Source: a virus (taxonomy: Duplodnaviria > Caudoviricetes). Taken from it: a stretch of 36,299 nucleotides of DNA. Every line of letters begins with the position of its first letter. Positions within the stretch are counted from its first letter, which is position 1. Below, in pieces: positions 10,964 to 35,283 of this stretch. The notes beneath the pieces were generated by a model. It made no database searches. It worked only from the letters and a program-made list of their open reading frames with translations, and had not been told where the DNA came from. The position numbers and the translations under genes were made by a program. The stretch covers positions 1-36,299 of the IMG/VR virus record IMGVR_UViG_3300037851_000010. One strand, 5' to 3'.

Positions 10964-10996
10964 TTAAGGATTCTTTAGCGGAGAAGGACTAAAGAA

Positions 10997-11728
10997 GTGG
11001 CACAGTTTAGCGATACAACTAATAAGAACGGTATCATTCAGAAGATTGAATTTATTACTGGATTAGGAGATGCTGCGATTTCAGGTAATTCAACGCTCTT
11101 AAAGCAGTTTACGGGCCTAGTGAATGACTGGCTCGGAGTAATGGCCGGAGACTTATTACAGGTTGATGGACGTTACGAATGGGATGACACGAACTATACG
11201 GATCAACCGATAGCCACTTTCAGTTTAGTTGCCGACCAAGCCGGTTATTCCTTTATGGAAGACGCTAATTCAGCTCAGATTTTAGATATTACAAGGGTAG
11301 AGGTAAAGAACGCAGCCTCTGGTGATTGGATTAAATTAAGACCGATAGACCAGAGAGAGATATCTCAAGGCTACACAGAGTGGATGGAAAGCTCTGGGAT
11401 ACCGATTTATTATGATTTTATAGGGACAGTATTAACTCTTTTTCCAGCTTCAAGCTATAACTCTACAGACGGAGCTAAGGTTTGGTTTAAGAGAGAGCCT
11501 GCATATTTTGATTCAACCGACACAACTGATGAGCCGGGATTTTGCACGCCTTTTCAAAAGATTCTATGGCTTGGACCTGCTTATGATTATTCGGTGCTTA
11601 GTGGGAAGCCTAACGTAGCTTTAAGACAAGAGATTGAGCTAGAGAGAGAACGTTTACGAGAATTTTATTCAAGGCGAGGTAAATACGAGCAACCCCGATT
11701 GGTCGGGCAAGTTCGTTCTTCAAGATGA
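10997..11728 (+). CDS. Head-tail adaptor (tail tubular protein A-like), putative
   Basis: Position after head module; GIPIYY..LTLFP pattern; helical C-terminus. Confidence 0.6.
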   Translation: MAQFSDTTNKNGIIQKIEFITGLGDAAISGNSTLLKQFTGLVNDWLGVMAGDLLQVDGRYEWDDTNYTDQPIATFSLVADQAGYSFMEDANSAQILDITRVEVKNAASGDWIKLRPIDQREISQGYTEWMESSGIPIYYDFIGTVLTLFPASSYNSTDGAKVWFKREPAYFDSTDTTDEPGFCTPFQKILWLGPAYDYSVLSGKPNVALRQEIELERERLREFYSRRGKYEQPRLVGQVRSSR

Positions 11729-11901
11729 GCTTAAGTAATTTAGCCAAAACAGCAGCAACACTAGCGAATCTAGTAAAGACATCTATTAAGACCTTTCTTC
11801 TAAAAGAAGATGGGTTTTATTTATTACTTGAAACGGGTGATAGGATTAGATTAGACGGATCAGAGAATCAAATATCAAACTTAGCAAAAACATCGGCTTA
11901 A
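11725..11901 (+). CDS. 58-aa small virion/tail protein
   Basis: ATGA overlap; LLKEDGFYLLLETGDRI core flanked by (S/A)NLxKT repeats. Confidence 0.65.
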   Translation: MSLSNLAKTAATLANLVKTSIKTFLLKEDGFYLLLETGDRIRLDGSENQISNLAKTSA

Positions 11902-11917
11902 GCGGAAAGCACTAAAT

Positions 11918-13027
11918 ATGGCAGATACAAAAATTTCAGCACTCCCTACGGGTCAATTTCAGTCAACAGACTATATCCCCTATGTGGATGGTGCTTCGGG
12001 TATAACTAGAAAAGCTACTAAAGCTGATCTTAGAGGCTCTCAGGGTTCACAGGGTAGTGCTTCAACTGTCGCTGGGCCGCAAGGCTCTCAGGGTTCACAG
12101 GGTAGTGCGTCTACTGTGCCTGGTCCTCGGGGTAGTCAAGGTTCGGCTGGTATGGATGGAGCAGATGCGGTAGCTGGTAAACTTCCTTCATCTTTTGTCT
12201 CGACCACAACTCCAGTAGGGACTACATCTGTAACACTCGAAGATGTGACTAATATGTCTACTACTATAACGTTAGATGAATCAGTAGAGATAGGCGTATT
12301 TGCATCGTTTGAGATAGAAACACAGTCTGGTTCTTCTGCTTCAGTTATTGGCTTAGCGATAAGCATAGATGGCGTTGATGGGGATGTATTCGAAAGGTAT
12401 CTAAGTGGCTCTAACGACAAAGGAATAGGTGCTATTACTTACAGAAGTGCAGAACTAGCTGCAGGAACATATACTGTAAAATTAAGATTTCAAAGAGTTT
12501 CTGGAACGACAACTCCTGGGATAAATAATGCAGCGATGTTAGTAATGGCTATGCAAGGAGCTAAAGGTGAAACTGGTCCTATGGGTCCGATTGGAAATCA
12601 AGGAAGTATGGGTTCAGTTGGTAGTCAAGGTAGCCAGGGGTCAGCTTCTACGGTACCTGGACCAACTGGGGCAACTGGGGCGACTGGACCGACGGGATAT
12701 GTAGTTCCGAGAGTAACATCACAAGCAACAGCTTCAGCACCTACGCCAGATGCAGATACGACTGATGTATTCTCTCTAACAGCTCAAGGTGAAACAGCAG
12801 CTTTTGTAACTCCTTCAGGAACTCCGTCTAATAAACAGAAACTTATAATTCAGATTCTACCTACGGGTGGAAATATAAACGTAACTTGGTCTACGGGATA
12901 TACGGCTGGAGGAGTAGCTCTACCAACATCAGCAACTCAAGCTAAGAAAACTACACTAGGATTTATGTATGATACAGATAATTCCTTCAATACTTGGGTA
13001 TTGTTGGCTAAAGCAGAGCAAGCATAA
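11918..13027 (+). CDS. Collagen-like tail fibre
   Basis: MADTKISAL N-terminus; two G-X-Y blocks (GSQ/GPT) separated by a beta domain; Ser/Thr-rich. Confidence 0.8.
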   Translation: MADTKISALPTGQFQSTDYIPYVDGASGITRKATKADLRGSQGSQGSASTVAGPQGSQGSQGSASTVPGPRGSQGSAGMDGADAVAGKLPSSFVSTTTPVGTTSVTLEDVTNMSTTITLDESVEIGVFASFEIETQSGSSASVIGLAISIDGVDGDVFERYLSGSNDKGIGAITYRSAELAAGTYTVKLRFQRVSGTTTPGINNAAMLVMAMQGAKGETGPMGPIGNQGSMGSVGSQGSQGSASTVPGPTGATGATGPTGYVVPRVTSQATASAPTPDADTTDVFSLTAQGETAAFVTPSGTPSNKQKLIIQILPTGGNINVTWSTGYTAGGVALPTSATQAKKTTLGFMYDTDNSFNTWVLLAKAEQA

Positions 13028-13030
13028 AAT

Positions 13031-13729
13031 ATGGCATCAATAACTATTTATCCAGATGCTCATCCAGAATCAACTTCTGTAGATGGGTTTGAAAGAAAAG
13101 CTGGTGCAGGTGATACTTGGTCAGCATATAGGGATGCAACAGTCGGAACTCAAACGACCAATCTTGACGACGGAGCATCAGCAGGTGAAGCAATAGAAAT
13201 TGGCAGAAATAATTCTGGTTGGGAAGATTTTAGAAGAGTAATAGTTCTGTTTGACGCTTCATCTATTCCTTCTGGAGCTACAATAGACTCGGCTACATAT
13301 AGTTTTGTTGCAACTGCCAAGGGTGATAATGCTACAACTCCACAATCCATAGCTTTAGTTTCTTCAAGTCCTGCAAGTAATACAGAATTAGTAGCAGAAG
13401 ACTATGACCAGCTAGGAACTACATTATTAGCCACCGCAAAAACTATATCTTCTATAACGGCAGATTCTTCTACATATAACGATATGGCTTTAAATGCTGC
13501 TGGATTATCTTATATTCAAACGGCTATAGGTGCGAGCGGTATTATAAAACTTGGATTAAGAATGGAATCTGATAGAGCTAATTCAGAACCTAGTTTCGGT
13601 TCAGGCTCTCAGTATGCTTATGTCGGACATATCTTTGCAGACAACGGATCGTTAAAGCCTAAATTGGTAATAAATTATACTTTACCAGTAAATTCAAACT
13701 TTTTAATGTTTATGTCTCCAGATAGATAA
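13031..13729 (+). CDS. Virion accessory protein, DNRLRE/CBM-like beta-sandwich
   Basis: LFDASSIPSGATIDSAT and C-terminal KPKLVINY. Confidence 0.6.
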   Translation: MASITIYPDAHPESTSVDGFERKAGAGDTWSAYRDATVGTQTTNLDDGASAGEAIEIGRNNSGWEDFRRVIVLFDASSIPSGATIDSATYSFVATAKGDNATTPQSIALVSSSPASNTELVAEDYDQLGTTLLATAKTISSITADSSTYNDMALNAAGLSYIQTAIGASGIIKLGLRMESDRANSEPSFGSGSQYAYVGHIFADNGSLKPKLVINYTLPVNSNFLMFMSPDR

Positions 13730-13730
13730 T

Positions 13731-14255
13731 ATGAAAACCATGCATGGAAATAAAATATCAACAAAAAAATTATGGGAAAATCCAGAATACAGAGAGCATA
13801 TGAGACTTGCACATATTGGTCAGGTTGCGTGGAATAAAGGTAAAAAAACAGGGTTAGCTCCAAAGAGTGCATTTAAGAAAGGGCAAAAAGGAGCAAGATT
13901 AGGAAAGAAAAATTCGCCAGAGCATATTGAAAAAATGAGATTGGCTAGAAAGGGTAAGCTAAGTTTAAAAACAAGGGGTGCGAATAACTGGAACTGGAAG
14001 GGTGGAATAACGCCAATAAACAATCAAATTAGACACTCATTAGAATATAAACTATGGCGTGAAGCGGTTTTTAAAAGAGATAACTGGACTTGCATCTGGT
14101 GCGGTCAAAGAAGTGGTAGACTTCATGCAGATCATATCAAGCCATTCTCGCTTTATCCAGAACTACGCTTTGCACTAGATAACGGTAGAACACTTTGTAT
14201 AAATTGTCATTATAAAACAAACACTTATGGAGGAAAAAAACAAAAAACAAAATAA
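13731..14255 (+). mobile_element. Free-standing HNH homing endonuclease with NUMOD3-like basic N-terminus
   Basis: WREAVFKRDNWTCIWCG, HADHIKP, NGRTLCINCH; AWNKGKK repeats. Confidence 0.9.
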
Positions 14256-15150
14256 GGCAATCTCGGTGGTGATGATATGTAAAAACGAATCGGCCCTAAT
14301 AGAGCGAGCCTTAAAGTCCGTAGAAGGATGCGATGAGCTTATAATCTGTGATACTGGTTCAACCGACAATACCGTTGAAATAGCTAAAAAATATACTGAC
14401 AAGGTTTGCACTGAATACAAGTGGAACGCTAACTTCGCAGAGGCGAGAAACCATGCAAAATCTCATGCTACGGGGGATTGGATTTTATCGTTGGATTCGG
14501 ACGAATACCTGCACGACTTCTCAGAAGTCCGTAGAGTTGTAGAACTCGCTAAAGATTGCGTAGGAGTTATTCTACGAGGAGAACACGGCAAAGCAGACTT
14601 CAGGTTTCCAAGACTCTTTAGAAATACGCCAGACATTCAGTGGTTCGGTGCAGCACATAATCATCTGGGGGTTACTAAAGAAGGCGAAGACAAAGGAATT
14701 AACGTTTCGGGTGAGGGCGAACTTGTAGGTAACGTAACTATAACCTATGGATTCTCTCCAGCTCACGCCTTAGATCCCGACAGGACTCTTAATATACTTT
14801 TAAATGAAGTGAAAGACCCAACTAAAGTTAGAGAGATGTATTACTTGGGTAGAGAATACTGGTATAAGGGAAACTATAAAGAAGCCGCTAAATGGTTCGG
14901 AAAGCATGTTCAATCTACGAACTTCACAGCAGAAAAAGCAGACTCATTTCTTACTATGTCTAAATGTTATTCAGCTCTAGGATCTGATGATGATGCAAGA
15001 GATGCGTGCTTACAGGCAATCAATCTAAATCCTAATTTCAAAGAAGCAATAAGGTGGATGGGTCATATATCATACCCTCAGAACGCAAAGAGGTGGTATG
15101 ATTGGGCTGAATCAGCAAATAATACTAATGTTTTATTTATAAGAGAATGA
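14227..15150 (+). CDS. GT2 glycosyltransferase with C-terminal TPR repeats (protein glycosyltransferase-like)
   Basis: MICKNE, DTGSTDNT, FAEARN, LDSDE, RLFRN; YYLGREY and AINLNPN TPR motifs. Confidence 0.9.
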   Translation: MEEKNKKQNKAISVVMICKNESALIERALKSVEGCDELIICDTGSTDNTVEIAKKYTDKVCTEYKWNANFAEARNHAKSHATGDWILSLDSDEYLHDFSEVRRVVELAKDCVGVILRGEHGKADFRFPRLFRNTPDIQWFGAAHNHLGVTKEGEDKGINVSGEGELVGNVTITYGFSPAHALDPDRTLNILLNEVKDPTKVREMYYLGREYWYKGNYKEAAKWFGKHVQSTNFTAEKADSFLTMSKCYSALGSDDDARDACLQAINLNPNFKEAIRWMGHISYPQNAKRWYDWAESANNTNVLFIRE

Positions 15151-15611
15151 TTGGAATAACAGACGAACAATTACAACCGTATGTACCGAGGGAATTCGTC
15201 CCGGTGGGTTTGGAATACAGATTTACTAATCAACAGAGATACGTTCAGGTAGAAGTCTTTTCGCCAGGAACGACAGTCTCTATAGGAGACGGGGCAAAGT
15301 ATATTTATATTCCACCTCAACTCGACAATATGAAGCTTGTTTTTATACAAGGCCAGCACGTTACTGCTGGGACGACTTCAAATACTACAGAGGTTCAGGT
15401 CTATAATTTAACTAAAGCAGTTGATATGCTATCTACAGTTCTTTCAATAGATTATAACGAGTTAACTTCAGTTACCGCAGGAACGCCAGTAGTTATAAAC
15501 GATGCAAACTCTCTGATTTCAACCAATGATGTTTTAAGAGTAGACGTGGACGCAGTAACAACTGTAGCACCAAAGGGTTTAATTTTAACATTAGGATTTA
15601 GAAAACCGTGA
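15147..15611 (+). CDS. Virion structural protein (beta-rich)
   Basis: In tail module, ATGA-coupled, Thr/Val-rich. Confidence 0.55.
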   Translation: MIGITDEQLQPYVPREFVPVGLEYRFTNQQRYVQVEVFSPGTTVSIGDGAKYIYIPPQLDNMKLVFIQGQHVTAGTTSNTTEVQVYNLTKAVDMLSTVLSIDYNELTSVTAGTPVVINDANSLISTNDVLRVDVDAVTTVAPKGLILTLGFRKP

Positions 15612-16225
15612 TAACATTTGATAATTCAGAACAAGCACAGGGAGCAAACGACCTAACGTGGAGCCATACGGTGGGTTCGGGTAACAACAGATATCTTCTA
15701 ATAGGTTATGTCGGTGGAACGACAAACGGAGTAACTTATAACGGAACAGCACTTACGCTATTAGGAGAAGTATTTGAGTCTAGTGCTGGTGTTTATTATA
15801 GGCTTTATGGATTAGCTAATCCGGCAGTAGGAACGCACGATGCAGTTGTAACATCATCTGTTGCGGCAGTAAAAGTAGCTTTCTCGATATCATTAAGCGG
15901 AGTATTTGGAATAGGTAATGTAGTTACAGAACAGGTAGTAAGCTCAATAATTTCTACTGACATAGATACAACCTATCCAAGTTCATGGGTGGTAGAATTT
16001 GAGGGAACACAGAATCCGGCATCAGATTTTACACAGAACAGTAGTCAGACAGAAAGAGAAGACTTAGGCGGAACTTCTTGGAGTATAGGGTGTGCGACTA
16101 AGGCCTTTACTACGCCAGGAACGCAATCTTTACAATATACTTCGTCAGCCAACGCAGTTCAAGTTCAAATATTAGCAGAAATAATCGATGAAAAGCACCA
16201 AGCAAATAATTTAATATTTATATGA
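15608..16225 (+). CDS. Virion accessory/spike protein
   Basis: WSHTVGSGNNRYLL..GVTYNG; Ser/Thr-rich. Confidence 0.55.
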   Translation: MITFDNSEQAQGANDLTWSHTVGSGNNRYLLIGYVGGTTNGVTYNGTALTLLGEVFESSAGVYYRLYGLANPAVGTHDAVVTSSVAAVKVAFSISLSGVFGIGNVVTEQVVSSIISTDIDTTYPSSWVVEFEGTQNPASDFTQNSSQTEREDLGGTSWSIGCATKAFTTPGTQSLQYTSSANAVQVQILAEIIDEKHQANNLIFI

Positions 16226-17892
16226 AAATACTTATTCCCGGATATGGCGGTGGTCTAGCGAATTCAAAATACGCTCCTTTAGAGGAACAATCTTTTCAGA
16301 CGGCTGAAAACTTAGACGTATTTCAGCAACAGAGGATTCTGAGACCAGTAGTTAATCTGGCCTCGCAGACCTTTGATGTAGCAACAAATACTTTTAAGCC
16401 CGAATTCTTCTACAAGGCTTCTAATAACCAACTATTCTGGTTCGGATCTGATGGAAGCCAGAAGATGAGGATTTATAATCAGAACCTTTCCTCTGCACCC
16501 GGAGAGCTTGATATAACAGTAACAGGACCGCCAGTTTCTCCACTTGCTAATGATGGTTCGTCTTCTAGCTCGGCAGATAACTATGCACCTGACGCTAATA
16601 ATTTGCAGAGCTTTCATCACGTTGCGGAGTTGAATGGATATCTACTTTTCTGGAGTGCTACTAAACTTTCGAGAATAACTCTTGGTGGAACACCCTCTAC
16701 GAGTAGCACTTGGGCCGAGAATCCTTTTACATTCAGCGTAACGGCTAATACGGGGCATCCGATATTTACGCACCAAGGATTAAGGAAAGTTTTTATCGCA
16801 GTAGATAACGTGCTTTACTCTTTTGATTCGACAACTATAGCAGGCTCAGCCGTTCCAACGACAGCTCTTACACTCGACCCTGCTTATGTTATTAAGAGCA
16901 TAACTTCAAGTGGTAGATTCGTAGTCTTGGGATGTATATCAAAGAGAGATACGACTACATCTAAACTATTCATATACGATGGTTCTGCGACTACAGTTGA
17001 TGATATAATAGATATAGGAGACTATGGACTTCAGGCAGTTAGAAACGTGAACGGAATACTCAACGTCCTTTGCACAAATGTAGTTATGGGAGTTCCGGGC
17101 GGATATACAAGAGTTTACCTAGTGAACGGAAATTCAGTAGTTCTTGGAGATGAAATAATTATAACTCCTGGCACACCCACATACGCCGCTAATAAAGGTA
17201 GTAGATTGATTGGTATGATAGACGATGCTTCAGTAGATGTGTGGGGTGATAGATTGATTTGGGCTTACAGGGGAAGAATATCGGGTCCCGATGTTTCTTT
17301 CTTAAACATAACAAATGGAATCTACGCTTATGGGAAGTTTGAATCTAATCAGCCGAGAATCATAACTCTCTTAAACACGCCTACTACCTCAGCCGCAGGA
17401 TATTCATTTACTTGCGTGAGAGTTATAGAGGGCTATATTTACGCAGCGTTCAACAATCAAACCAACTGGTATATCGAAACTCAGGCTTCTAACTCTACTT
17501 GGGGTGCAAGAGATTCTTCTGGGGTCTATGAATCAAACGTCTTTACTCTAAATAGTGGTAATATGGGCAAGATAAGTAAAATCACACTATTCCATGACCC
17601 ACTTCCAGCTTCGTGTGGATTTACAGTTCAGGTAAAGCATTACGGACACTATACGAGAGGCTCATCAATCCCAGTAGAAGATTCGTACGCAACAGTTTAC
17701 GGACCAGAGGGTAATTCATCTACTTCAGGAATGAGCCAATCTACTCAATATACAACCTATACAGTATTAGAAGACCCGAATGTATTTAAGAAAGCTAGAT
17801 TCGCACAGATAAAAATACTATTTGATGAAGTAAATGGTGTAGATGCTCCGGGCATCGTATTTCCTATTCTTATCGAAACAGAAGAAAAATGA
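16222..17892 (+). CDS. Tail nozzle / DNA-stabilisation protein (putative)
   Basis: N-terminal YGGGL..ENLD pattern; beta-propeller-like 556 aa; precedes ejection genes. Confidence 0.6.
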   Translation: MKILIPGYGGGLANSKYAPLEEQSFQTAENLDVFQQQRILRPVVNLASQTFDVATNTFKPEFFYKASNNQLFWFGSDGSQKMRIYNQNLSSAPGELDITVTGPPVSPLANDGSSSSSADNYAPDANNLQSFHHVAELNGYLLFWSATKLSRITLGGTPSTSSTWAENPFTFSVTANTGHPIFTHQGLRKVFIAVDNVLYSFDSTTIAGSAVPTTALTLDPAYVIKSITSSGRFVVLGCISKRDTTTSKLFIYDGSATTVDDIIDIGDYGLQAVRNVNGILNVLCTNVVMGVPGGYTRVYLVNGNSVVLGDEIIITPGTPTYAANKGSRLIGMIDDASVDVWGDRLIWAYRGRISGPDVSFLNITNGIYAYGKFESNQPRIITLLNTPTTSAAGYSFTCVRVIEGYIYAAFNNQTNWYIETQASNSTWGARDSSGVYESNVFTLNSGNMGKISKITLFHDPLPASCGFTVQVKHYGHYTRGSSIPVEDSYATVYGPEGNSSTSGMSQSTQYTTYTVLEDPNVFKKARFAQIKILFDEVNGVDAPGIVFPILIETEEK

Positions 17893-17898
17893 TATAAT
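17890..17898 (+). promoter_or_regulatory. Extended -10 promoter TGATATAAT upstream of ejection genes
   Basis: TGnTATAAT; predicted start ~17905, next to AGCGG. Confidence 0.55.
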
Positions 17899-17922
17899 TA
17901 ACTAAAGCGGATAAAAAAAACT

Positions 17923-19509
17923 ATGGCAGATCCACTATTTTACAAGCAAGGAACAGATGTCTATAAGCTAGAAGGAAATTATGCACCATATAAACTCAAC
18001 CAAGAGCAGTTTCAAGGATATGGAATCAACTATGATTTATTAGGCGAAGGACAACAAGCGGCTAAAGGGCTTAATTTAGTAAGAGACACCGAAACTAAAC
18101 AATTCATAGCAGGCGGTGGAGTTTTGGGTCAGCCAAATGCAGCCGTAAATGCAGGGATTACTTTACCAGTTAAATCTGAAGTTCCCGTTACGACACTAGA
18201 GAATCCCATTACAAGAGCGGATCTAAATAATATTTACGCATATAATCAAGCTAACCTTCAAAAGCAATACGAAGACCAATTAGCACAACAGAATCAGTTA
18301 TTTGAACAAACGCTTGCGAAGATGCAACTTACTCCAGAAGAGAAGTTAGCCCAGGAGAGGCTATTAGGACTGCAACAATTACAGACGCAAGCCATACAAA
18401 GAGTCCAAGAGAGACCACTTGAAGGAGCAACATTGAGAAGTGGTATGGAATCCGAGATTCAAAACATAGCTTCTGGGAATACAAGAGAATCGTTAGTTAA
18501 TCTAAGGCAGCAGACTTTTGAGGCAGAAAGGCTCAATCTTTTGACGACACAAAGACGGCAAGAGCTGGAATCTTTAAAGATGCAATTAGAGCAGGGGAAT
18601 ATCAATACCGATAACTTGTTTAAATACCAACAGCTTAACCAGGAGATGCAGAGTGAATATCTTGATAGAATAGAACAGCTAAATACAAACGCCAGAACCG
18701 CTTTAGGAACAATATTAGATAGATTTAAAGGTTTAACGCTAGACAGTCTAAGCCCTGAGAATTTGAATTTAATAACTACTATAGCTCAGCAAGCAGGTAT
18801 TCCTTTCGATATATTAAGAGACGGAATGAAGGTTGTTGCAGACCAGATTAAAGCCCAGCAAGACCTTAATAGATATCAGGCAGAGACAAGTAGGATAAAC
18901 GCCACAAGAACTGGCGGAGGTAATACCGACCAATTATATTCAGGCTTAAGCACGCCAACCGCTACGGCAGTAAGGTCAAAGGTCAGTAAGTTTTCAACCG
19001 AACCAGCAGTACAGAATTTTGCAACAATACAGAGTGGTTACAACTTTGCTAAATCTTTAAGCTCGACAACTAAGAATCCCGCAGATGATCAAGCGTTAAT
19101 ATACTCTCTAGCGAAAGCCCTAGACCCCGGTTCAGTAGTTAGGGAGGGTGAATATGCAACGGCTCAGAAATACTCCCAATCTTGGATTCAGGCTTATGGT
19201 AAGGGCGTAGAACAGGCGTTGGCCGGAACTGGATTCTTATCTGAGACTGCAAGGAATAATATAAAGAAAACTATTGAGCAGAAGTATCTATCAGAGAAAA
19301 AGACTTACGACAACCTATACAATAATTATACGGCAGGTATAAACGCTTTAACTGGTAGAAATGATGGAAATCAATTCCTTGTAGATTATGTAACGCCTAT
19401 ATCAGTAACAGACTTTGTAAATACTTCAATTAACGAAATAACACCCCCTACTACAGAAACTAAATCCACTGGTGCGTGGACGAATTTCTGGAACTGGCTT
19501 TCAACATAA
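17923..19509 (+). CDS. Internal virion / DNA ejection protein (putative)
   Basis: Q-rich helical region, LDPGSVVREGEY motif, position. Confidence 0.6.
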   Translation: MADPLFYKQGTDVYKLEGNYAPYKLNQEQFQGYGINYDLLGEGQQAAKGLNLVRDTETKQFIAGGGVLGQPNAAVNAGITLPVKSEVPVTTLENPITRADLNNIYAYNQANLQKQYEDQLAQQNQLFEQTLAKMQLTPEEKLAQERLLGLQQLQTQAIQRVQERPLEGATLRSGMESEIQNIASGNTRESLVNLRQQTFEAERLNLLTTQRRQELESLKMQLEQGNINTDNLFKYQQLNQEMQSEYLDRIEQLNTNARTALGTILDRFKGLTLDSLSPENLNLITTIAQQAGIPFDILRDGMKVVADQIKAQQDLNRYQAETSRINATRTGGGNTDQLYSGLSTPTATAVRSKVSKFSTEPAVQNFATIQSGYNFAKSLSSTTKNPADDQALIYSLAKALDPGSVVREGEYATAQKYSQSWIQAYGKGVEQALAGTGFLSETARNNIKKTIEQKYLSEKKTYDNLYNNYTAGINALTGRNDGNQFLVDYVTPISVTDFVNTSINEITPPTTETKSTGAWTNFWNWLST

Positions 19510-21034: not shown

Positions 21035-21040
21035 ACTAAT

Positions 21041-24321: not shown

Positions 24322-24332
24322 TAGATCAGGGG

Positions 24333-25210: not shown

Positions 25211-25400
25211 AAAACGCTATACATTCACTAGAACAGTTACTATCAGATATACATTCGAGGTTGATGCCTATGATCGGGAAAAGGCGACAGAGGAGTTCGC
25301 TGATATGAGAAACAGCGATGCGGTGGGTAAGCAAGTAATAGATAATGAATCTAATTTCGTAGGAGCGGAGTTAATTCACGATGAAGAAGATGAATTATAA
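25197..25400 (+). CDS. Hypothetical protein
   Basis: 67-aa overlapping ORF. Confidence 0.6.
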   Translation: MEKNKKRYTFTRTVTIRYTFEVDAYDREKATEEFADMRNSDAVGKQVIDNESNFVGAELIHDEEDEL

Positions 25401-27362: not shown

Positions 27363-27394
27363 TAAGTATGTTCAAAATCGTAATGACAATTAGT

Positions 27395-27486
27395 GTTTGT
27401 CAGCAGCAGGGAGTAGTATCTTCACCGCAAGGTGAGTGGCTAATTACGAGCCATGAACAGGATACTGCTCCCTTTTGCTTGTAAAC
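27395..27486 (+). ncRNA. Three-way-junction structured leader upstream of replication initiator
   Basis: 13-bp closing stem enclosing a GCAA-tetraloop hairpin and a 6-bp hairpin. Confidence 0.6.
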
Positions 27487-27510
27487 TTATGAGATTATTA
27501 AAAAGACCTT

Positions 27511-28221
27511 ATGTCAAAAAAACGCTATATAGATACTAAATTTTGGAGTGATAACTACGTCACCAACCTTGACCCATTAGAACGGTATCTGTTTCTTTAT
27601 CTAATTTCTAATGAGCATACCAGTTTGTGTGGTGTATACGAGATTCCTTTGCGTATAATGACATTTGAATCTGGCCTTGATGGACAGGCCTTATCGAATA
27701 TACTTACACGCTTTGAAAAGGATGATAAAGTAGTATACCGTGATGGGTGGATTCTTATAAAGAATTTCATAAAGAACCAAGTATTAAATCCTTCTGTGAT
27801 AGAGGGTATTTATAGGGAAATAGAGGATATTCCCCCTGCCTTAAAGGGTCTTATTAATACAGACTGTATACAGACTGGTAGCACACTGGGTACAGATAAG
27901 TTAGGTAAGGTTAAGTATAGTAAGGTTAAGTTAAATAAAGAATATAATGAAAAATTTGAAAAATTCTGGACTGAATATCCCAATAAGGTGGCTAAGAAGA
28001 AAGCACTTGATTCCTTTAGTAGGATTGACCCGAAACTGTTTGACGCTATAATGGCCGGGCTTGCTAAATGGAAGTTATCGGCTCAGTGGCAAAAAGACGG
28101 TGGTCAATTTATACCTCACCCGACTACTTGGCTCAATCAGGAGAGGTGGAATGACGAAGTTAAAATTAATAAATCTAACCTCTTACGAGGAGATTCAACA
28201 AAATATGACAAATACAATTAG
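27511..28221 (+). CDS. Phage replication initiator (replisome organiser)
   Basis: RYIDTKFWSD N-terminal wHTH-like region; FWTEYPNKVAK and PHPTTWLNQERW C-terminal domain; followed by DnaC. Confidence 0.8.
   Translation: MSKKRYIDTKFWSDNYVTNLDPLERYLFLYLISNEHTSLCGVYEIPLRIMTFESGLDGQALSNILTRFEKDDKVVYRDGWILIKNFIKNQVLNPSVIEGIYREIEDIPPALKGLINTDCIQTGSTLGTDKLGKVKYSKVKLNKEYNEKFEKFWTEYPNKVAKKKALDSFSRIDPKLFDAIMAGLAKWKLSAQWQKDGGQFIPHPTTWLNQERWNDEVKINKSNLLRGDSTKYDKYN
27857..27940 (+). repeat. Iteron-like and 5-nt periodic repeats (putative origin within rep)
   Basis: ATACAGACTG x2 plus degenerate copies; TAAGG/TTAAG periodic tract. Confidence 0.5.
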
Positions 28222-28783
28222 TTTTGAAGAAGGTTTCAAAGACTGGTTTTATAAAAATATACCTAAAAGATTTTCAAGTATAAATAATAAAGATATACCA
28301 GATAGTATAAATTTAGATATTCTTGATAATAATAAGGGTCTGTATATATGGGGAGACTGTGGAGTTGGAAAAACTCACGTCGCTTATGCAATATTTGCTA
28401 AACTATCTTATAAGTATTTTAAAGATAATGGTGGCTCTAGTAATTATTGGACTTCTACTATTGGGTTCTGGCATTGGCAGGAAATACTAAGACTATTAAG
28501 ACCGTCGTCTGATCCTAAAAAAGAATCTTGGACAGTAAAAGAAGATTTTAACCCTAAGATATTGATTATAGATGACCTAGGCTCAGAGAAAGCAACAGAC
28601 TGGTCTATAGAACAGATGTATTATTTAATAAATCTTAGATACGAGAATATGAAGCCATTAGTAATTACTAGCAATTTTTCGTTAAAAGAATTAGGAGAAA
28701 AAGTTGGCGACCGGATACCAAGTAGAATCGCTGAAATGTGTGAGGTTATAAAATTAAAAGGTAAAGACCGTAGAATAAAATGA
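28205..28783 (+). CDS. DnaC/IstB-like AAA+ helicase loader
   Basis: GDCGVGKT Walker A, IIDDLG Walker B, ITSN, RIPSRI, GKDRR. Confidence 0.9.
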   Translation: MTNTISFEEGFKDWFYKNIPKRFSSINNKDIPDSINLDILDNNKGLYIWGDCGVGKTHVAYAIFAKLSYKYFKDNGGSSNYWTSTIGFWHWQEILRLLRPSSDPKKESWTVKEDFNPKILIIDDLGSEKATDWSIEQMYYLINLRYENMKPLVITSNFSLKELGEKVGDRIPSRIAEMCEVIKLKGKDRRIK

Positions 28784-28950
28784 AATATCCAAAACCAATT
28801 AGTCTAAAGGGTCTCTGTAACTGGACTCACCCTAAGACTGAGTGTGCCTATTGTGGTCGATGGTATAGATCAACATCTAAATTCTGTCCGAGATGTAAAA
28901 AACCTAATGAAGATAGAGAATTTAGACACCCATTTCAATATCCGATATGA
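28780..28950 (+). CDS. 56-aa zinc-ribbon protein
   Basis: CAYC and CPRC; ATGA overlaps both sides. Confidence 0.65.
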   Translation: MKYPKPISLKGLCNWTHPKTECAYCGRWYRSTSKFCPRCKKPNEDREFRHPFQYPI

Positions 28951-29339
28951 AGCGTAAAAAAACAAAATCAATAAGTAAGTTAAAGAAGGAAGCTTGGGCC
29001 ATTTTCTCTGGGTGGATTAGAAACCGAGATAATTATACTTGCTATACCTGCGGAACTAAATATCTACCCGATGAAGGTTATAAAATGCACGCTGGACACT
29101 TTGTGCCGAGAATACACAACGCAACCTTTTTAGACGAGATGAATGTCCACGCTCAATGTTATGTCTGTAATATAATCAAGAAAGGAAACGCTGGCGAATA
29201 TGCTTATAGATTGATCAAAGAATACGGAAAAGAAGCTTTCGAAAATTTAGTAAAACGTGGCCGGACAAAGAAAAGTTTTCAACCTAAGGAGCTAGAAGAA
29301 TTAAAACAAAAATATGCTCTCACCCCACCAAATAATTAA
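28947..29339 (+). CDS. ninG: NinG/Rap-like recombination endonuclease
   Basis: FSGWIRNRD, CYTCG, HAGHF, NVHAQCYVCN, GN. Confidence 0.85.
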   Translation: MKRKKTKSISKLKKEAWAIFSGWIRNRDNYTCYTCGTKYLPDEGYKMHAGHFVPRIHNATFLDEMNVHAQCYVCNIIKKGNAGEYAYRLIKEYGKEAFENLVKRGRTKKSFQPKELEELKQKYALTPPNN

Positions 29340-29598
29340 CCTCGCTGAATCCTTCATCAACGAAGAACTAAGCGAGAAAGGCACGGAGGGAAGGATAATT
29401 ATGAAGCCCACTATCTACGCCCACGAACACGCCTACGGAGTTAAACTATTCTCCCAATGGCTCTTAAAGAATAACTACGACGTAATCAAGACCAAAGAGA
29501 TAGAACCCCTCCCCTTAATGGAAAGAATCAACCCCAATGTAAGAGTAGAGGTCTTGTGGAATAAGGTTAATGAGTTAATAAATAAAATAAAATTGTAA
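29314..29598 (+). CDS. Hypothetical protein
   Basis: 94-aa ORF. Confidence 0.6.
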   Translation: MLSPHQIINLAESFINEELSEKGTEGRIIMKPTIYAHEHAYGVKLFSQWLLKNNYDVIKTKEIEPLPLMERINPNVRVEVLWNKVNELINKIKL

Positions 29599-29683
29599 GG
29601 AGAATAATCTAAATACCCTCTGCCTTAGGTATAACATAAAGATTAATAGGAAAAGAGAGTATTGGATAAATTACTTTATCAAA

Positions 29684-30223
29684 ATGAATAAAAAATATCG
29701 GCTTACAAAAAATAAAAAGAAATGGTGCGGAATAACTCTCTACCAGATAGAGGCAACCGCTTCATTCGGTCTAGTAGTGAAAGGAGAACTCGGAGGATAT
29801 ATTGAGAAGGAAGCAAACCTATCGCAAGGGGGCAATGCGTGGGTGTATGACAATGCGAGGGTGTATGGCGATGCGAGGGTGTCTGGCGATGCGAGGGTGT
29901 ATGGCGATGCGAGGGTGTCTGGCAATGCGTGGGTGTCTGGCGATGCGTGGGTGTATGGCGATGCGAGGGTGTCTGGCGATGCGTGGGTGTCTGGCAATGC
30001 GAGGGTGTCTGGCAAACTAAAACTTCTAGCAGGTTTCTTTTTCGGAATCCGCTATCACAAAGAAGAAATAAAGTTTACAAAGATAGATAATGATTATGAA
30101 CTGATTTACAAAGGATATGCTAAGTTCGGAGAAGAAGATGAAAAGAAAACTGAACTATTAAAGAAAGCTGACGAGTTGATTGTAAAAGCCGAGGAATTAA
30201 AATCAGAAGCGAATAAACTATAG
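29684..30223 (+). CDS. Hexapeptide-repeat (left-handed beta-helix) phage protein
   Basis: LYQIEA..GELGGYIE N-terminus; about 10 x [DN]A[RW]V[YS]G. Confidence 0.85.
   Translation: MNKKYRLTKNKKKWCGITLYQIEATASFGLVVKGELGGYIEKEANLSQGGNAWVYDNARVYGDARVSGDARVYGDARVSGNAWVSGDAWVYGDARVSGDAWVSGNARVSGKLKLLAGFFFGIRYHKEEIKFTKIDNDYELIYKGYAKFGEEDEKKTELLKKADELIVKAEELKSEANKL
29830..30014 (+). repeat. 18-nt coding tandem repeat
   Basis: GGC(G/A)ATGCG(A/T)GGGTGT(A/C)T units. Confidence 0.9.
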
Positions 30224-30253
30224 CCCCATGCAACTAACAAACTAAGAAATAAT

Positions 30254-30361
30254 ATGAAAACTAACTGTTGTAAAAAATGTTTTGAGAATGAACCAAGATA
30301 TCCAATGTGTCTTGACCCCCAATGTCCCTGTCATCAGCCAGTAAAGGAAGCAAAAAAATAA
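30254..30361 (+). CDS. 35-aa Cys-rich microprotein
   Basis: MKTNCCKKC...CLDPQCPCHQPVKEAKK. Confidence 0.5.
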   Translation: MKTNCCKKCFENEPRYPMCLDPQCPCHQPVKEAKK

Positions 30362-30373
30362 TAATAACCTAAT

Positions 30374-30625
30374 ATGAAAAATATATTTATATTTTGGATA
30401 ATGTGGCAACTAATAGTGATTGGCTGGACTGTCGCAGATATGCACAATAAGATAGTGAGCGGAACTTATAACTGCACAAGGCATTGGAACTTAGGCCACC
30501 ATGTAATAATTCCTCGTTGGAAACTTGCCGTAATGCCATTAGCTTTATTTATACCTGGTGAGAATATTAGTGAATCTGATAAATACTGCCAAGACCAACT
30601 ACAAGAGCATCATAAAGTTAAATAA
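30374..30625 (+). CDS. Small membrane protein
   Basis: Hydrophobic N-terminus. Confidence 0.6.
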   Translation: MKNIFIFWIMWQLIVIGWTVADMHNKIVSGTYNCTRHWNLGHHVIIPRWKLAVMPLALFIPGENISESDKYCQDQLQEHHKVK

Positions 30626-30630
30626 CCTAT

Positions 30631-31062
30631 ATGACTAACAATAACCAGTGTGAATGTGACAGAGATTATCCTCACGAACATCTAAAAGATGGTGGAGTTG
30701 ATATTAGCCAGTCAGAGCTAGGACAAAAATTAAGAGGTGTGTTAGACCACCCAGTAAAGGAAGCCGATTGGATTGAGAGATTCAACGAGGAGTTTACTGC
30801 CACAGACCTGACTAAAAATCCAGAGCTATACCTAAAGGTGCAAGACTTTATCCGCAACCTCTTAAAATCAGACCGCCAGCGTATAGCCGAGGAGGTGGGG
30901 AAGATGAAGAAAGAAACTACTCATCGATGGTGTGATGCTTATAATAATCACAATCAGCTCATAGATAAAGCTGGGTATTGCCGAGATGAGGTAGATTCTG
31001 ATAACAGGATAGAGGGTTACAACCAAGCCCTTAAAGACATAGAAGAAATCATAACCCCCTAA
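30631..31062 (+). CDS. Hypothetical protein
   Basis: WIERF and C-terminal GYNQAL motifs typical of small phage accessory ORFs. Confidence 0.65.
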   Translation: MTNNNQCECDRDYPHEHLKDGGVDISQSELGQKLRGVLDHPVKEADWIERFNEEFTATDLTKNPELYLKVQDFIRNLLKSDRQRIAEEVGKMKKETTHRWCDAYNNHNQLIDKAGYCRDEVDSDNRIEGYNQALKDIEEIITP

Positions 31063-31071
31063 GTAAAAGAG

Positions 31072-31383
31072 ATGATAGAGAATCCAACAAAAGAACAAAT
31101 AGAAGAATACCTAGCTAAAATAAAGTGGTCATTAAGACACCATGGTTGCGAACACTATTACTTCTACAATCATAAAAATAAATGTGTAGGAATGTATCTT
31201 TTATTTCCAAAAACTGATGCCAGAATATGCTTAGATGGCAAGGACTGGAAAACCCCTTCATTCACATTTTACTTAAAAGAAGTAGTTATGGAATTATTAG
31301 AAAATAGAAAACCCGATTGTGTCAGTTTCAGAGGAAAAAACGACAAAAGCATATTTATTCTTTGCCCTAATTATGATAACTAA
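31072..31383 (+). CDS. Hypothetical protein
   Basis: 103-aa ORF flanked by 13-bp direct repeats. Confidence 0.6.
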   Translation: MIENPTKEQIEEYLAKIKWSLRHHGCEHYYFYNHKNKCVGMYLLFPKTDARICLDGKDWKTPSFTFYLKEVVMELLENRKPDCVSFRGKNDKSIFILCPNYDN

Positions 31384-31395
31384 CCCCTAAGTAAA

Positions 31396-31809
31396 ATGAA
31401 AATAAACGAAGGTAGTAGCGAGATAACAACGACAGCATCAAGTTATATAAGGATTGAGGAGCTGAGAGAGCTTTTAATCAGGTTTGACGGAATTGAAGGA
31501 ACATATCCAGAGCATAGTTACGAAGGACAAGCAGTTTGGAGTTTTATTAATAGGGAATTAAATCTTAACCAACCAAGCAGGGATAGGAATGACGAAATTA
31601 GAGAAATAGAGGCTAAATGTTCGCATAGTTTTCCAGAAGATAAAGGTTTTGGTCAATGGATACGCTGTATAAAGTGCGGACAAATGAGGGATAGCGAGAT
31701 ATATAAACGTGAGAGACTTAAACAAGACAAAAGGAAGTCCCAAGAGATATTAGAGCAAATAGATAAACAATATGAAAAACATACAGGAGAAGAAGATAAA
31801 ATCATATAA
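31396..31809 (+). CDS. Hypothetical protein with Zn-binding motif
   Basis: CSHSF...CIKCG. Confidence 0.6.
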   Translation: MKINEGSSEITTTASSYIRIEELRELLIRFDGIEGTYPEHSYEGQAVWSFINRELNLNQPSRDRNDEIREIEAKCSHSFPEDKGFGQWIRCIKCGQMRDSEIYKRERLKQDKRKSQEILEQIDKQYEKHTGEEDKII

Positions 31810-31893
31810 GATTATCTTAGATTCATAGATGAAGAAAGACCACAGGAGAGTGGTGGTGGTGTATTTACAATGCGAGGACTGTCTGAAACCTTT

Positions 31894-31919
31894 GCCGGAG
31901 TGATCCCCGGCTTTTATTT
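31894..31919 (+). terminator. Possible intrinsic terminator ending early region
   Basis: GCCGG/CCGGC stem followed by TTTTATTT. Confidence 0.5.
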
Positions 31920-31931
31920 AAGAGTAAAAAA

Positions 31932-31940
31932 TGTTATAAT
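31932..31940 (+). promoter_or_regulatory. Extended -10 promoter TGTTATAAT, probably leaderless (ATG 31948)
   Basis: TGnTATAAT + 7 nt + ATG. Confidence 0.65.
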
Positions 31941-31947
31941 AGGTTAT

Positions 31948-32304
31948 ATGGCTGACACTCAAACAGCAGGTGGGGGCAGGGACGAGCAGGGAAGATGGAT
32001 TCCTGGTGTAAGTGGCAACCCAGAAGGTACTAAACCTTGGCCCGAAGAAAAAAAGCTAATGAAACGAGCCATAAAGGAAATAGTTGAAGAATACAAAGAT
32101 AACCTCGCCAATGCTTTACCCAAGATAGAGCCAGTAATCATAGAAAAGGCTATTAAGGGCGATATGGTAGCTATAAAAGAAATACACGAAAGGGTAATAG
32201 GTAAATCATCAGATGATAAACCTATAGATGTCGTGCATAAAGTTCTGGTTGAATTTGTAAATGGAAAACCCGATAATAAAAATACAGATACCGGAGGAAT
32301 TTAA
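31948..32304 (+). CDS. Terminase small subunit-like protein (DUF5681-like)
   Basis: PGVSGNPEG, KAIKGDMVAIKEIHERVIGK; immediately upstream of TerL. Confidence 0.7.
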   Translation: MADTQTAGGGRDEQGRWIPGVSGNPEGTKPWPEEKKLMKRAIKEIVEEYKDNLANALPKIEPVIIEKAIKGDMVAIKEIHERVIGKSSDDKPIDVVHKVLVEFVNGKPDNKNTDTGGI

Positions 32305-33499
32305 ACGGCTATTTGATCCTGACTGGCGTGAAGCGGCTATCTGGGGTGGTAGATATTCTTTAAAGTCTCACACGGTAGCACGAGTTTTGCTTATAAGAGC
32401 AAGGGAAAAGAAAATGAGAATAGGGTGCTTTAGAGAATTTCAGAATTCAATAGCAGAAAGCTCGCACCAATTACTATCGGACTTAATTAAGCAGTATCGT
32501 TTAACAGACTTTAACGTAACGGACAAATCAATCGTAAACAGGATAAACGGATCGGACTTTCTTTTTAAGGGCTTATGGAATAATGAGCAGTCTATTAAAT
32601 CAATCGAAGGTATAGACATCGCTTGGGTAGAAGAAGCTCAGACAATCTCAAAAGAGAGTTTAGAGGTTCTGACGCCGACAGTCCGTAAGGACGGCTCACA
32701 GATAATCTACACCTATAACAGATTCACCGAAGATGATCCTATCCATATGAGATTAGTTGTTGATGGCAGACCTAATACTTTAAAAATTAATGTTAATTAC
32801 GATGTTGCTCTTAAATACGGCTGGCTTCCTAAAGTAATCCTAGACGAGATAGAGGATGACAAGGTGAATCGTCCCATACTCTATAAGCATAAATGGCTAG
32901 GTGAACCAACAACAGCAGAACGTAAAATCTATAAAGATTGGAACATTATCGAAGAAATCCCACACGAAGCCAGATTAGAGAGATATGGAGTAGATTTTGG
33001 ATATACCAACGATCCGACAACTATCATAGCCCTCTACTACTACAACGGAGGATACATTCTTGATGAGATAACCTTTCAGCGAGGTCTCAAGAACAACCAA
33101 ATAGCCGATATTCTAAAGAACATCCCGGAAGCAATCGTAGTAGCCGACTCAGCCGAACCCAAGAGCATAGACGAAATCCGTGAGCATGGAATCAACATCA
33201 TTCCAACTATGAAAGGTAGGGACTCGGTCCTAAACGGTATCAATAAAGTCCAGCAACAGAGAATTTCAATCACTAAAAGGTCTGTAAATATCATAAAAGA
33301 GTATCGCAACTATTTGTTTAAAACTGATAAAAATGGTAAGATTAGTAATGAACCCGATGAAGGATTTGATCACACGATGGATGCTATAAGATATGCAATA
33401 ACATCAATGGGTCCGCTAATAGGACTCGATGAGCAAGTCCGTGAAGCCAGAGAAAGGGCTAGAGCTAGGCGGATAATTTTAAAAAACAATGCTCGATAG
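32261..33499 (+). CDS. terL: Terminase large subunit, PBSX family
   Basis: GGRYSLKS Walker A, WVEEA Walker B, GVDFG, ADSAEP, DHTMDAIRY. Confidence 0.95.
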   Translation: MENPIIKIQIPEEFKRLFDPDWREAAIWGGRYSLKSHTVARVLLIRAREKKMRIGCFREFQNSIAESSHQLLSDLIKQYRLTDFNVTDKSIVNRINGSDFLFKGLWNNEQSIKSIEGIDIAWVEEAQTISKESLEVLTPTVRKDGSQIIYTYNRFTEDDPIHMRLVVDGRPNTLKINVNYDVALKYGWLPKVILDEIEDDKVNRPILYKHKWLGEPTTAERKIYKDWNIIEEIPHEARLERYGVDFGYTNDPTTIIALYYYNGGYILDEITFQRGLKNNQIADILKNIPEAIVVADSAEPKSIDEIREHGINIIPTMKGRDSVLNGINKVQQQRISITKRSVNIIKEYRNYLFKTDKNGKISNEPDEGFDHTMDAIRYAITSMGPLIGLDEQVREARERARARRIILKNNAR

Positions 33500-33516
33500 C
33501 GGTATCGAGTAAGTAA

Positions 33517-35283
33517 GTGAAAGATATTTATACAGAGTTAGTGGGTCTTGAGGAAACCTACAAAACTGGGTCTATCGATATAGTAGATGGCCTGCCTTTT
33601 AATCAGAACAATTTAATAAAGACTATCGAATTTTACACTAACTCATCCTACCTAAACGGTGAGAAAGACGAACTCGGAAGAGATAAGCCTTTTCATAACA
33701 TTGTAAACGCCAACGTAGATATAGCTATTGTAGCTACAGACATAGATACAAAAGACATAAAGATTATGTCAAAAGACACAGGAATGAAGGGGTTTGTTAA
33801 ATCTTTCTTACTTACGAAGGAAGCTGAGCTATGGATGAGAGAAGTAAACTTCTCCAAGACATTAAACGAAATGGGTGAGTGCCGAGCTAGGTATGGTGGG
33901 CTTTTAGTTAAGAAGTGTATAGAAGGTGACCAAGTAAGGGTCGGAGTAGTCCAGTGGAAGAATGTATTTACAGATGCCTCTGATATCCTAAACAACCCGA
34001 TAGTAGAAGTTCACTACTTTACACCGAGTCAGTTGCAAGACAAATCAGATGTGTGGGATAACACCGATGAGGCTATCAAGCTATTCAAAAAGACTGATAA
34101 GAAAATTAAGGTTTATGAGATTCACGGAATGTTCCCTGAGCCATATCTAAAAGGAGATTTTTCAGATAGTGATAGTAAGTATACACAACAAGTTCATGTT
34201 TTAGCTTGTGCTGGAAAGAAATGGGTAGAGTTATTCAAAGACGAGGAGAAAGAAAATCCTTATAAATATCTAACCTGGAAATATGTGTCTGGTAGAGCAT
34301 TAGGTCGCGGAGTCGTAGAAGAAGGAATGGAAGCACAGGTATGGACTAATGACTCAGTGATGGCCGAAAGAGATATAATGGCATTATCTGGTAAACTTCT
34401 CTTACAGACTGCCTCAAAGAAATACAACGGAAGAAACGCTTTAAATGAGGTTGTTACGGGAACAATACTTGAAACAGAAGATAATAGGCCCATTACACAG
34501 GTAGATTTAACTCCAAGAACAATCCCGGTATTTGAATCTCTAGTAGACAGATGGCAGAAACAGTTTGATAGAAGCACGTCAATAACAGATTCATTAAGAG
34601 GTGAAACGCCTCCATCCGGGCAGGCATATAGACTGTCGGCTTTAGTAACTCAGCAATCAGCTTCTTCGTTTGATTATCGCAGAGAAGAGATGGGTATATT
34701 TATTAAAGAGATATTTTACGATTGGATTCTGCCACACTTATCAAAGAGGCTAAAGAAGAAGCATACACTAGATGCAGAATTTACATTAGAAGAATTAGCT
34801 TTTATAGACGAATCTTATGTGAACTACTTGACTATGAAAGAATTAGAAAAAGCTAATAAGGAAGGACGTGGGTTAGATATAATACAGATACAAGCAGAAA
34901 TGGCTAATGCCAAAGAGAAAATGACCAAGACAAAAGCCCGAAGATTCTTACAGATTCCAGAAGGTTACTTAGATGGTAAATATACAGTTGATATCGTCAC
35001 TACCGGCGAACAGATGAATAAGACTGCAACGCTTGAATCGCTTTCGAATATATTAACAGTCGTAGCTCAGAATCCGATGGTTCTACAAGATTCAGTATTA
35101 AGAGAAGTATTCGGAAGAATTGTGGAGATATCAGGATTAGGAATTAGCCCTGTTCAGTTGATGGCTAAACCTCAGCAGATGATGCAACAGCAACAGCAAG
35201 GACCGCAGGGTCAGATGGTGCAACCACAGAGTACATCGAGCCTACCTAACCCACAAGAAGTAGCACCAGAGGCACAACAATAA
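33517..35283 (+). CDS. Portal protein
   Basis: 588 aa directly after TerL; GRGVVE; Q-rich C-terminal tail. Confidence 0.8.
   Translation: MKDIYTELVGLEETYKTGSIDIVDGLPFNQNNLIKTIEFYTNSSYLNGEKDELGRDKPFHNIVNANVDIAIVATDIDTKDIKIMSKDTGMKGFVKSFLLTKEAELWMREVNFSKTLNEMGECRARYGGLLVKKCIEGDQVRVGVVQWKNVFTDASDILNNPIVEVHYFTPSQLQDKSDVWDNTDEAIKLFKKTDKKIKVYEIHGMFPEPYLKGDFSDSDSKYTQQVHVLACAGKKWVELFKDEEKENPYKYLTWKYVSGRALGRGVVEEGMEAQVWTNDSVMAERDIMALSGKLLLQTASKKYNGRNALNEVVTGTILETEDNRPITQVDLTPRTIPVFESLVDRWQKQFDRSTSITDSLRGETPPSGQAYRLSALVTQQSASSFDYRREEMGIFIKEIFYDWILPHLSKRLKKKHTLDAEFTLEELAFIDESYVNYLTMKELEKANKEGRGLDIIQIQAEMANAKEKMTKTKARRFLQIPEGYLDGKYTVDIVTTGEQMNKTATLESLSNILTVVAQNPMVLQDSVLREVFGRIVEISGLGISPVQLMAKPQQMMQQQQQGPQGQMVQPQSTSSLPNPQEVAPEAQQ

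Follow-up and report, generated by a model that had tools for sequence, protein, structure and literature searches.

The 36,299-nucleotide (nt) window analysed here is the whole of IMG/VR virus record IMGVR_UViG_3300037851_000010 (Duplodnaviria; Caudoviricetes), a 36.3 kb record of 39% G+C with a 57-nt terminal repeat, which encodes terminase, portal, scaffold, major capsid and head-tail adaptor proteins together with a glycosylation cluster and collagen-repeat fibres. Its subject is a hairpin at 10921–10964, in the spacer between the open reading frame (ORF) 10368 and the adaptor gene, whose loop is complementary to a short motif, AGCGG, found before the starts of several virion genes, and which comparative sequence analysis predicts to be, probably, an RNA–RNA riboregulator of portal and adaptor translation. 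The genes, hairpins and sites assigned to this system in the window lie on the plus strand. ORF 10368 (10368–10910) encodes a 180-residue coiled-coil protein that is kept directly upstream of the adaptor gene in relatives; a fold search with this protein gave no match, and its profile found a single match in 401 Patescibacteria genomes, which was the centre itself. The podovirus head-tail adaptor gene (10997–11728, GTG start) is one predicted target. The adaptor model resembles podophage portal-tail chains (Foldseek E 1e-7), with the SU10 tail among the matches, while the Pfam SU10_adaptor profile scores below its cut-off and a search of an annotated phage collection returned no match. The portal gene (33517–35283, GTG start), the second predicted target, is labelled by its position after terL, its size and family synteny, the profile support being weak. 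In addition, a collagen-repeat fibre gene (11918–13027) is a predicted target in the window lineage, and a gene at 17923–19509 encodes a 528-residue 'ejection protein', a label that derives from gene position, with a weak lead from the atlas to DNA-transfer proteins.

The hairpin lies behind the stop of ORF 10368 and has a stem of 13–16 bp (arms 10922–10934 and 10951–10963) that folds strongly (z score −5.8), and its 12-nt loop (10938–10949) carries the seed UUUCCGC. The sequence-only reading had described this loop as complementary to AGCGG, which is borne out by the seed and the leader motifs and by their being conserved together. An extended −10 promoter-like box at 10352–10360, located 7 nt before the ATG of ORF 10368 and repeated in the close relative L058, is predicted to give a leaderless transcript that would include the hairpin. 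No U run of the kind found at intrinsic terminators follows position 10964 in the window or in L058; a U tract does follow the spacer hairpin in some relatives (L291, L299). An Rfam scan of the window and seven relatives gave no match, and no tRNA-like gene was found in the window.

The sites complementary to the loop are distributed over several leaders. In the adaptor leader, AGCGG (10977–10981) occupies the AGCGGAG loop of a small hairpin with a 5-bp stem (10972–10988), and this leader matches the seed over 9 bp, the best of 53 leaders. The fibre site (11901–11905), second best with 8 bp, lies in the loop of a weak hairpin at 11896–11910 that overlaps the stop of a 58-residue ORF, whereas the portal site (33498–33502) lies in the loop of a hairpin at 33492–33509 that overlaps the terminase stop. 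Both hairpins had been proposed from the window alone: the portal hairpin folds with a z score of −2.85, and the fibre hairpin, described as the weaker one, is there but weak when taken alone (z score +0.7). The ejection site can form 5 bp with the loop; it lies at 17906–17910, at a predicted transcript start behind an extended −10 box (17890–17898). Furthermore, an AGCGG at 10909–10913, overlapping the TAG stop of ORF 10368, could serve as an upstream partner site for the loop (5 bp); this site and the small adaptor-leader hairpin are additions to the earlier description, as are the overlaps of sites with upstream stops and the predicted transcript start at 17906.

The positions given for AGCGG at 10977, 11901, 17906 and 33498 are correct; from the end of the motif to the start codon the distance is 15 nt at 10997 (GTG), 12 nt at 11918, 12 nt at 17923 and 14 nt at 33517 (GTG), and a fifth copy (25364–25368) ends 12 nt before a possible, uncertain start of an exonuclease gene at 25381. 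Genome-wide the motif is not enriched (30 present, 35 expected), and at 12–15 nt before a start it occurs at 5 of 57 curated starts against 0.11 expected, the best of all combinations of 5-mer and window. After correction for the free choice of both, 1.8% of random-position sets and 33% of shuffled-leader sets yield a four-site match as good. The enrichment in a single genome is therefore suggestive only, and the statement that it is unlikely by chance is modest for the window taken alone (corrected p 0.02–0.33) and holds by way of conservation in L058, so that conservation, rather than single-genome enrichment, carries the case for AGCGG. A chance origin, that is, a 5-mer chosen post hoc among AT-rich leaders and partly set by stop codons, draws on these corrected values and on the overlap of the sites at 10909, 11901 and 33498 with upstream stop codons; conservation in L058 and the family-wide pattern largely refute it for the adaptor, portal and fibre sites, an argument that does not cover 17906 and 25364, and overall we regard it as scarcely credible.

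Several other roles for the motif were considered and rejected. Stop-codon readthrough at TAG-CGG fails at the fibre site and at 10909, where the frame to the next gene differs between the window and L058, and at the portal site, where the readthrough frame runs into a stop. A short ORF from 10914 has 17 codons in the window and 6 in L058. The motif is not accompanied by TAnnnT at the right place for a −10 element of leaderless mRNAs. Finally, the AGTGG that had been added as a capsid member of the set is present at 2141 and ends 15 nt before the ATG, and it could pair weakly with the loop by G-U (rank 4 of 53 leaders), but it lies in the last codons of the scaffold gene and is absent from L058 and L001, hence it is not retained as a regulatory site.

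L058 shares 75–83% protein identity with the window overall (portal 79%, adaptor 75–77%, capsid 81%) and keeps all four testable non-coding AGCGG sites (10909, 10977, 11901 and 33498), compared with one of four other alignable AGCGG copies and 21.6% of aligned 5-mers overall. The hairpin of L058 has a replaced stem sequence and the same 12-nt loop as the window, and the adaptor-leader hairpin has likewise kept its 5-bp stem and AGCGGAG loop despite stem changes. Across three genomes, two of the seven portal-stem pairs are changed on both sides; with three rows this covariation is not significant against shuffles (59 of 500), although it beats all slid controls. The portal loop of L001 reads AACGG, and the AGCGG in the fibre leader is common only to the window and L058. 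Further members of the window lineage were sought with the portal alone (none found), with the adaptor alone (three distant loci), by portal alignment (only L001 close) and with a DNA pattern, whose 12 matches included none of window architecture by inspection. Three small-share DNA sequencing runs gave no reads over 10600–12100.

A wider sample of about 300 loci was gathered with capsid, terminase, portal, adaptor and ORF 10368 queries. Among 64 new ORF 10368 loci, 16 have distinct spacers before the adaptor gene, 3 have no adaptor called and 2 are duplicates; in the other 43 the adaptor abuts the ORF. Half of the distinct spacers (8 of 16) contain a long hairpin with an unpaired segment complementary to a motif before the adaptor start. 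Together with the window, L058 and four earlier loci, these make 14 distinct genomes with six seed types: UUUCCGC with target GCGGA (window and L058), CCACAAC with GUUGUGG (six genomes), CCGCAAC with GUUGCGG (two), CCGCAG with UGCGG (one), UGCAAC with GUUGCA (two) and CAGCGAC with GUCG (one). The window loop includes a CCGCAA core like that of other seeds. The genome's own motif also precedes the portal start in each of the 14 genomes with the portal covered, and no motif was seen before recognisable fibre or ejection genes in the other lineages, except for a partial match in L002. Thus, of the four-gene regulon first proposed, portal and adaptor form a conserved core, and the fibre site is found only in the window and L058. 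The option of a phage RNA, one of several in the sequence-only reading, is supported by these data, in that across the family the loop is conserved along with the leader motifs and varies with them. Separately, a stem at L002:7500–7545 pairs CCGCUA with UAGCGG, the loop and target words of the window, and a possible evolutionary link may be noted.

The pairing was examined in 17 records, comprising the 14 genomes, G172 and G162 (both with a long spacer, and both misses) and G167, which was dropped as a near-copy of G164; spacers of other designs and two spacers with an inserted open reading frame were left out. When the exposed segment was ranked blindly against all called leaders (11–61 per genome), the adaptor leader was among the top four in 13 of 16 genomes and the portal leader in 10 of 15. 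In cross-pairing of one genome per seed type, the cognate arrangement ranked first of 720 permutations for the adaptor and second of 720 for the portal, with the seeds of L294 and G165 set by hand and one of the exposed segments of G166 chosen. In 13 of 16 genomes the longest exact complement between hairpin and leader, picked blind to structure, is free of pairing except for 1 nt at most, and sits in the apical loop or in a bulge of 6–8 nt. Moreover, a regular expression built from these cases matches leaders of portal (13 of 80) and adaptor genes (17 of 88), 3 of the 13 portal leaders belonging to other designs, and few leaders of capsid (2 of 117), terminase (2 of 101) and scaffold genes (0 of 80). 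A scan with the CCACAAC-type pattern gave 29 matches, namely 5 known members and 24 without a family gene and with weak folds. On the adaptor tree the element is scattered, and at least five changes are forced by well-supported branches, so it was lost often or else exchanged. Taken together, the feature is, as judged from good comparative support, real, conserved and part of an undescribed phage RNA element.

Seed and target would also be expected to change jointly if a single DNA-binding protein read every site. In such a case the motif would be a DNA operator recognised in either orientation by a phage regulator, and the hairpin a terminator or stabiliser with an inverted site in its loop. 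This would account for the joint change within a genome and for the tolerated A/T exchanges beside GCGG; in other clades of the family a DNA box does lie 10–13 nt before the portal and adaptor −10 elements, and some seeds resemble a DnaA box. Since joint change alone is compatible with an operator, it is the exposure and strand tests that argue against one. Thirteen of the 16 hairpins leave the inverted site unpaired, some of them in bulges that a terminator does not need, and on the sense strand the stems contain 53 G-U pairs and 7 A-C mismatches, compared with 21 G-U pairs in antisense folds. The G-U count favours the folded strand by construction; the sense strand also folds more stably in 12 of 14 cases. 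These G-U pairs point to an element acting as sense-strand RNA, a structured element on the transcribed strand, and likewise disfavour an antisense decoy hairpin, which was rejected. Additionally, no inverted site lies near the portal promoter (none of 13 genomes has the seed within 200 nt upstream of the portal, therefore one source would serve several targets), the distance from the site to the −10 box or start is not fixed, and the window, L058 and G158 have no −10 box near the sites. An operator of this kind is accordingly considered quite improbable.

A second alternative is that an RNA-binding protein of phage or host origin reads (U)AGCGG in the leader loops, the hairpin masking or presenting the two neighbouring sites in cis or competing for the protein. 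The placement of the motif in small, covarying hairpin loops is consistent with this, and an invariant A that cannot pair with the loop, as well as the 4-bp match at the portal, suit a protein better than pairing. On the other hand, in 11 relatives a promoter-like box splits hairpin and target, and yet a complementarity of 6–9 bp is kept and changes with the target; no candidate protein is exclusive to hairpin-bearing genomes. The protein named in the sequence-only reading, a CsrA-like regulator, fits poorly, as the portal site (GCGGU) and many family targets have no GGA, CsrA had no match among the 57 window proteins, and it is present in 5 of 101 Patescibacteria genomes, a phylum sample that may not include the host. 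A protein reader is therefore unlikely, though it deserves to be weighed.

The last option concerns the ribosome. The host is likely to be a member of the Patescibacteria, because two capsid relatives (70–71% identity) sit on short contigs within Saccharibacteria genome bins. Only 6 of 57 curated leaders of the window carry a Shine-Dalgarno (SD)-like word, and extended −10 boxes 6–7 nt before the ATG of several genes point to leaderless mRNAs; such boxes, a few nt before an ATG, are found in the window at 1149, 10352, 27354 and 31932 and are frequent in relatives. A non-canonical recruitment signal pairing with host rRNA could thus be imagined, given that most leaders lack an SD and that one of the 27 16S tails examined (from 30 Patescibacteria loci) is the variant ACCGCC. 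However, 26 of the 27 tails read ACCUCC and none CCGCU, in a phylum sample that may not include the host, so the motif is, as first stated, not a canonical SD; it is not complementary to the 16S tails, lacks SD spacing (12–15 nt in the window, 7–27 nt in relatives) and genome-wide use, being carried by 5 of 57 genes, and it changes by phage lineage along with a phage-encoded complement. Ribosome recruitment, which the sequence-only reading had also offered, is hence very improbable. The helix-45 region of 16S rRNA includes GCGGAUG and, in some tails, the fibre sequence of L058; this match was dismissed as coincidence, since it is not kept by the window sites. The 16S 3′ end of the Patescibacteria locus L221 is ACCGCC and not ACCUCC.

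In the riboregulator reading, the AGCGG sites would be targets for the loop of the hairpin, which would pair with the portal, adaptor and fibre leaders and gate their translation. The hairpin would be transcribed, at the 3′ end of the RNA from ORF 10368 or from the head operon, and its loop–loop pairing would proceed without Hfq, a protein found in 0 of 101 Patescibacteria genomes. On the adaptor leader it may act in cis, through a pseudoknot that competes with the 10909 site under the terminating ribosome. The portal lies 5.4–13.7 kb upstream of the hairpin on the same strand, a distance that in the window crosses the circular junction, and its leader would be reached in trans or across 5–14 kb. 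In 11 of the 14 genomes (the exceptions being the window, L058 and G158) a −10 box separates the hairpin from the adaptor target, and in these 11 relatives, where portal and adaptor have promoters of their own, pairing would open a hairpin that hides the start and so turn translation on.

Calculated opening costs are consistent with this direction in the relatives. The median cost is 5.7 kcal/mol in target leaders and 2.9 kcal/mol in control leaders. Blocking the target changes the cost by a median of −1.8, compared with −0.3 in 214 controls, the rows not being phylogenetically independent, and among the 11 genomes whose genes have promoters of their own the cost falls in every one of the 21 leaders. 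In several of these, the target forms the 5′ arm of a hairpin whose stem ends 2–5 nt before the ATG, which is, by analogy, the anatomy of activation by unmasking, as for the small RNA IsrK. Activation is predicted most clearly for the adaptor leaders of G164 and G165 and for the portal leader of G164. For the phage of the window itself, activation has about an even chance, repression is possible but less probable, and an effect on RNA stability or processing is unlikely.

A number of findings weigh against the riboregulator. Blocking the target in the window raises the opening cost at the portal (+2.5), fibre (+1.4) and ejection (+1.0) leaders, so the start is not opened, and the start region of the L058 leaders is likewise not opened. 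The portal site of the window forms only four G-C pairs with the seed; this leader has rank 11 of 53 and is a miss of the blind ranking, as is the portal leader of L294 (6 of 16); the seeds of other lineages pair with the window portal leader better than its own seed does. Among 52 plus-strand GCGG sites, those of the portal and ejection leaders come 38th and 39th. At every site in the window lineage an A faces an A of the loop, a mismatch not explained by pairing alone, and the hairpin is covered by only two genomes of this lineage. G165, G172 and G162 were missed by the ranking for both adaptor and portal, and most family members are without the element, 43 of the 64 new loci having no spacer at all.

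Other members of the family have different leaders before the same two genes. A second design consists of a −10 box, a 3–4 bp hairpin and then a terminator-like hairpin with a U tract before the ATG; it is found at L030:7379 and 12790, at L021:5025 and 10443, and in L024, L029, L045, L190, L188, L070, L016 and L017, and in L030 it occurs exactly twice in 20.9 kb. Its small hairpin has covarying stems and a purine-rich 5-nt loop (CCG, five purines, CGG), which resembles a boxB-type antitermination site. In a third design, a CCGACCA box stands 13 nt (10 nt in L042) before the −10 box of leaderless portal and adaptor mRNAs (L033:6031, 9302 and 18968; L094, L113, L042, L043 and L050) and is likely to be a phage activator site. 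L266, with paired DnaA-box-like sequences upstream of the portal and adaptor promoters, is perhaps a fourth. The existence of at least three leader designs for portal and adaptor co-regulation in one family suggests strong selection on this control point.

Several further features of the window and its relatives may be recorded. Between capsid and adaptor, the segment 3456–10349 holds about 11 glycosyltransferase, methyl-, formyl-, amino- and acetyltransferase and epimerase genes, a cluster largely common to L058 and possibly involved in virion glycosylation. Between the portal and ORF 1164 (35283–36299 and 1–1147) lie about 2 kb of collagen-repeat genes and one more gene, whereas L058 and L001 have no such genes there; the 57-nt terminal repeat falls inside the collagen repeats, thus the circular junction may be an assembly artefact, and the record is rated 60% complete. 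The scaffold leader (window 1590–1625; L058:8700–8747; L060; L072) contains a conserved short motif and a covarying stem, and is a candidate site of scaffold autoregulation. Finally, the capsid gene is interrupted in L001:5518, L058:9300–9997, L057, L072, L037 and L011, all close relatives, at differing positions (near residues 18, 72–75 and 212), and the interruptions are candidate self-splicing introns or homing elements.

Few cases have been described in which virion-protein amounts are set by a phage's own base-pairing RNA, and a literature search found no such case for portal or adaptor genes or for phages of Patescibacteria. A bolder and rather doubtful reading is that the hairpin is an Hfq-free, re-codable address system, in which a seed of 7–9 nt at the far end of the head operon unlocks translation of the portal and of the adaptor, which docks on the portal. 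If true, two matching rings would be coupled to each other and to the completion of head-operon transcription, in hosts that barely use SD signals, and the element may exemplify a broader and undescribed class of 'anti-leader' RNAs that set the timing of tailed-phage assembly. The six natural seed/target pairs offer a ready specificity matrix for a direct test, and could also provide orthogonal, chaperone-free translational switches.

Known systems share individual properties with the element. CsrA/RsmA operators carry GGA in hairpin loops, and the leaders described here similarly present a short purine-rich motif in hairpin loops near start codons; unlike in those operators, the portal site and many relatives have no GGA, and the motif varies in step with a complementary RNA loop. 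The c4 RNA and the P4 CI RNA have exposed loops that bind short complements within transcripts of the same phage; these are tRNA-like immunity RNAs, generated by processing, and they repress antirepressor or replication genes. The hairpin differs from them in its lack of an Rfam match (the P1/P7 c4 antisense RNA is Rfam RF01695; PMC2864571), in the absence of a tRNA-like gene and in its virion-gene targets and context, and it does not fall within their class. A large survey predicted 10,006 structured RNAs from viral collections (PMC10690425); no description of the element was found in the literature, although the supplements of that survey may list the hairpin without a function.

The closest parallels are regulators that act by base pairing. 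IsrK, a small RNA of the Salmonella prophage Gifsy-1, acts in trans on a phage mRNA, where its pairing destabilises a helix that hides the ribosome-binding site and so turns translation on (PMC4825925), and here too a phage-encoded RNA is proposed to open a start-hiding leader helix. IsrK is derived from the 5′ end of its own target transcript, forms a long pairing and controls an antiterminator (PMC4825925), whereas the present element is a 3′-located hairpin with a seed of 4–9 nt and several virion-gene leaders without an SD as its putative targets. In the icaR mRNA of Staphylococcus aureus, a short motif in the 3′ untranslated region pairs with the translation-start region at the 5′ end (PMC3868564), and the hairpin could reach the portal leader 5–14 kb upstream in a comparable way. 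The icaR motif pairs with the SD itself, represses, recruits RNase III and acts within a single-gene mRNA (PMC3868564); in contrast, the motif described here is lineage-specific, is not an SD and occurs in several leaders, with opening predicted in most relatives. Among the features expected of an IsrK- or icaR-type riboregulator, an exposed seed, complementarity to leaders, joint change of the two and a structured element on the transcribed strand are present, the complementarity being weak (4 bp) at the window portal; easier access to the start codon is predicted in the 11 relatives and not for the portal, fibre or ejection leaders of the window. Thus, while it is a member of none of the classes tested, the element appears, from its sequence and predicted structure, to work like known base-pairing riboregulators.

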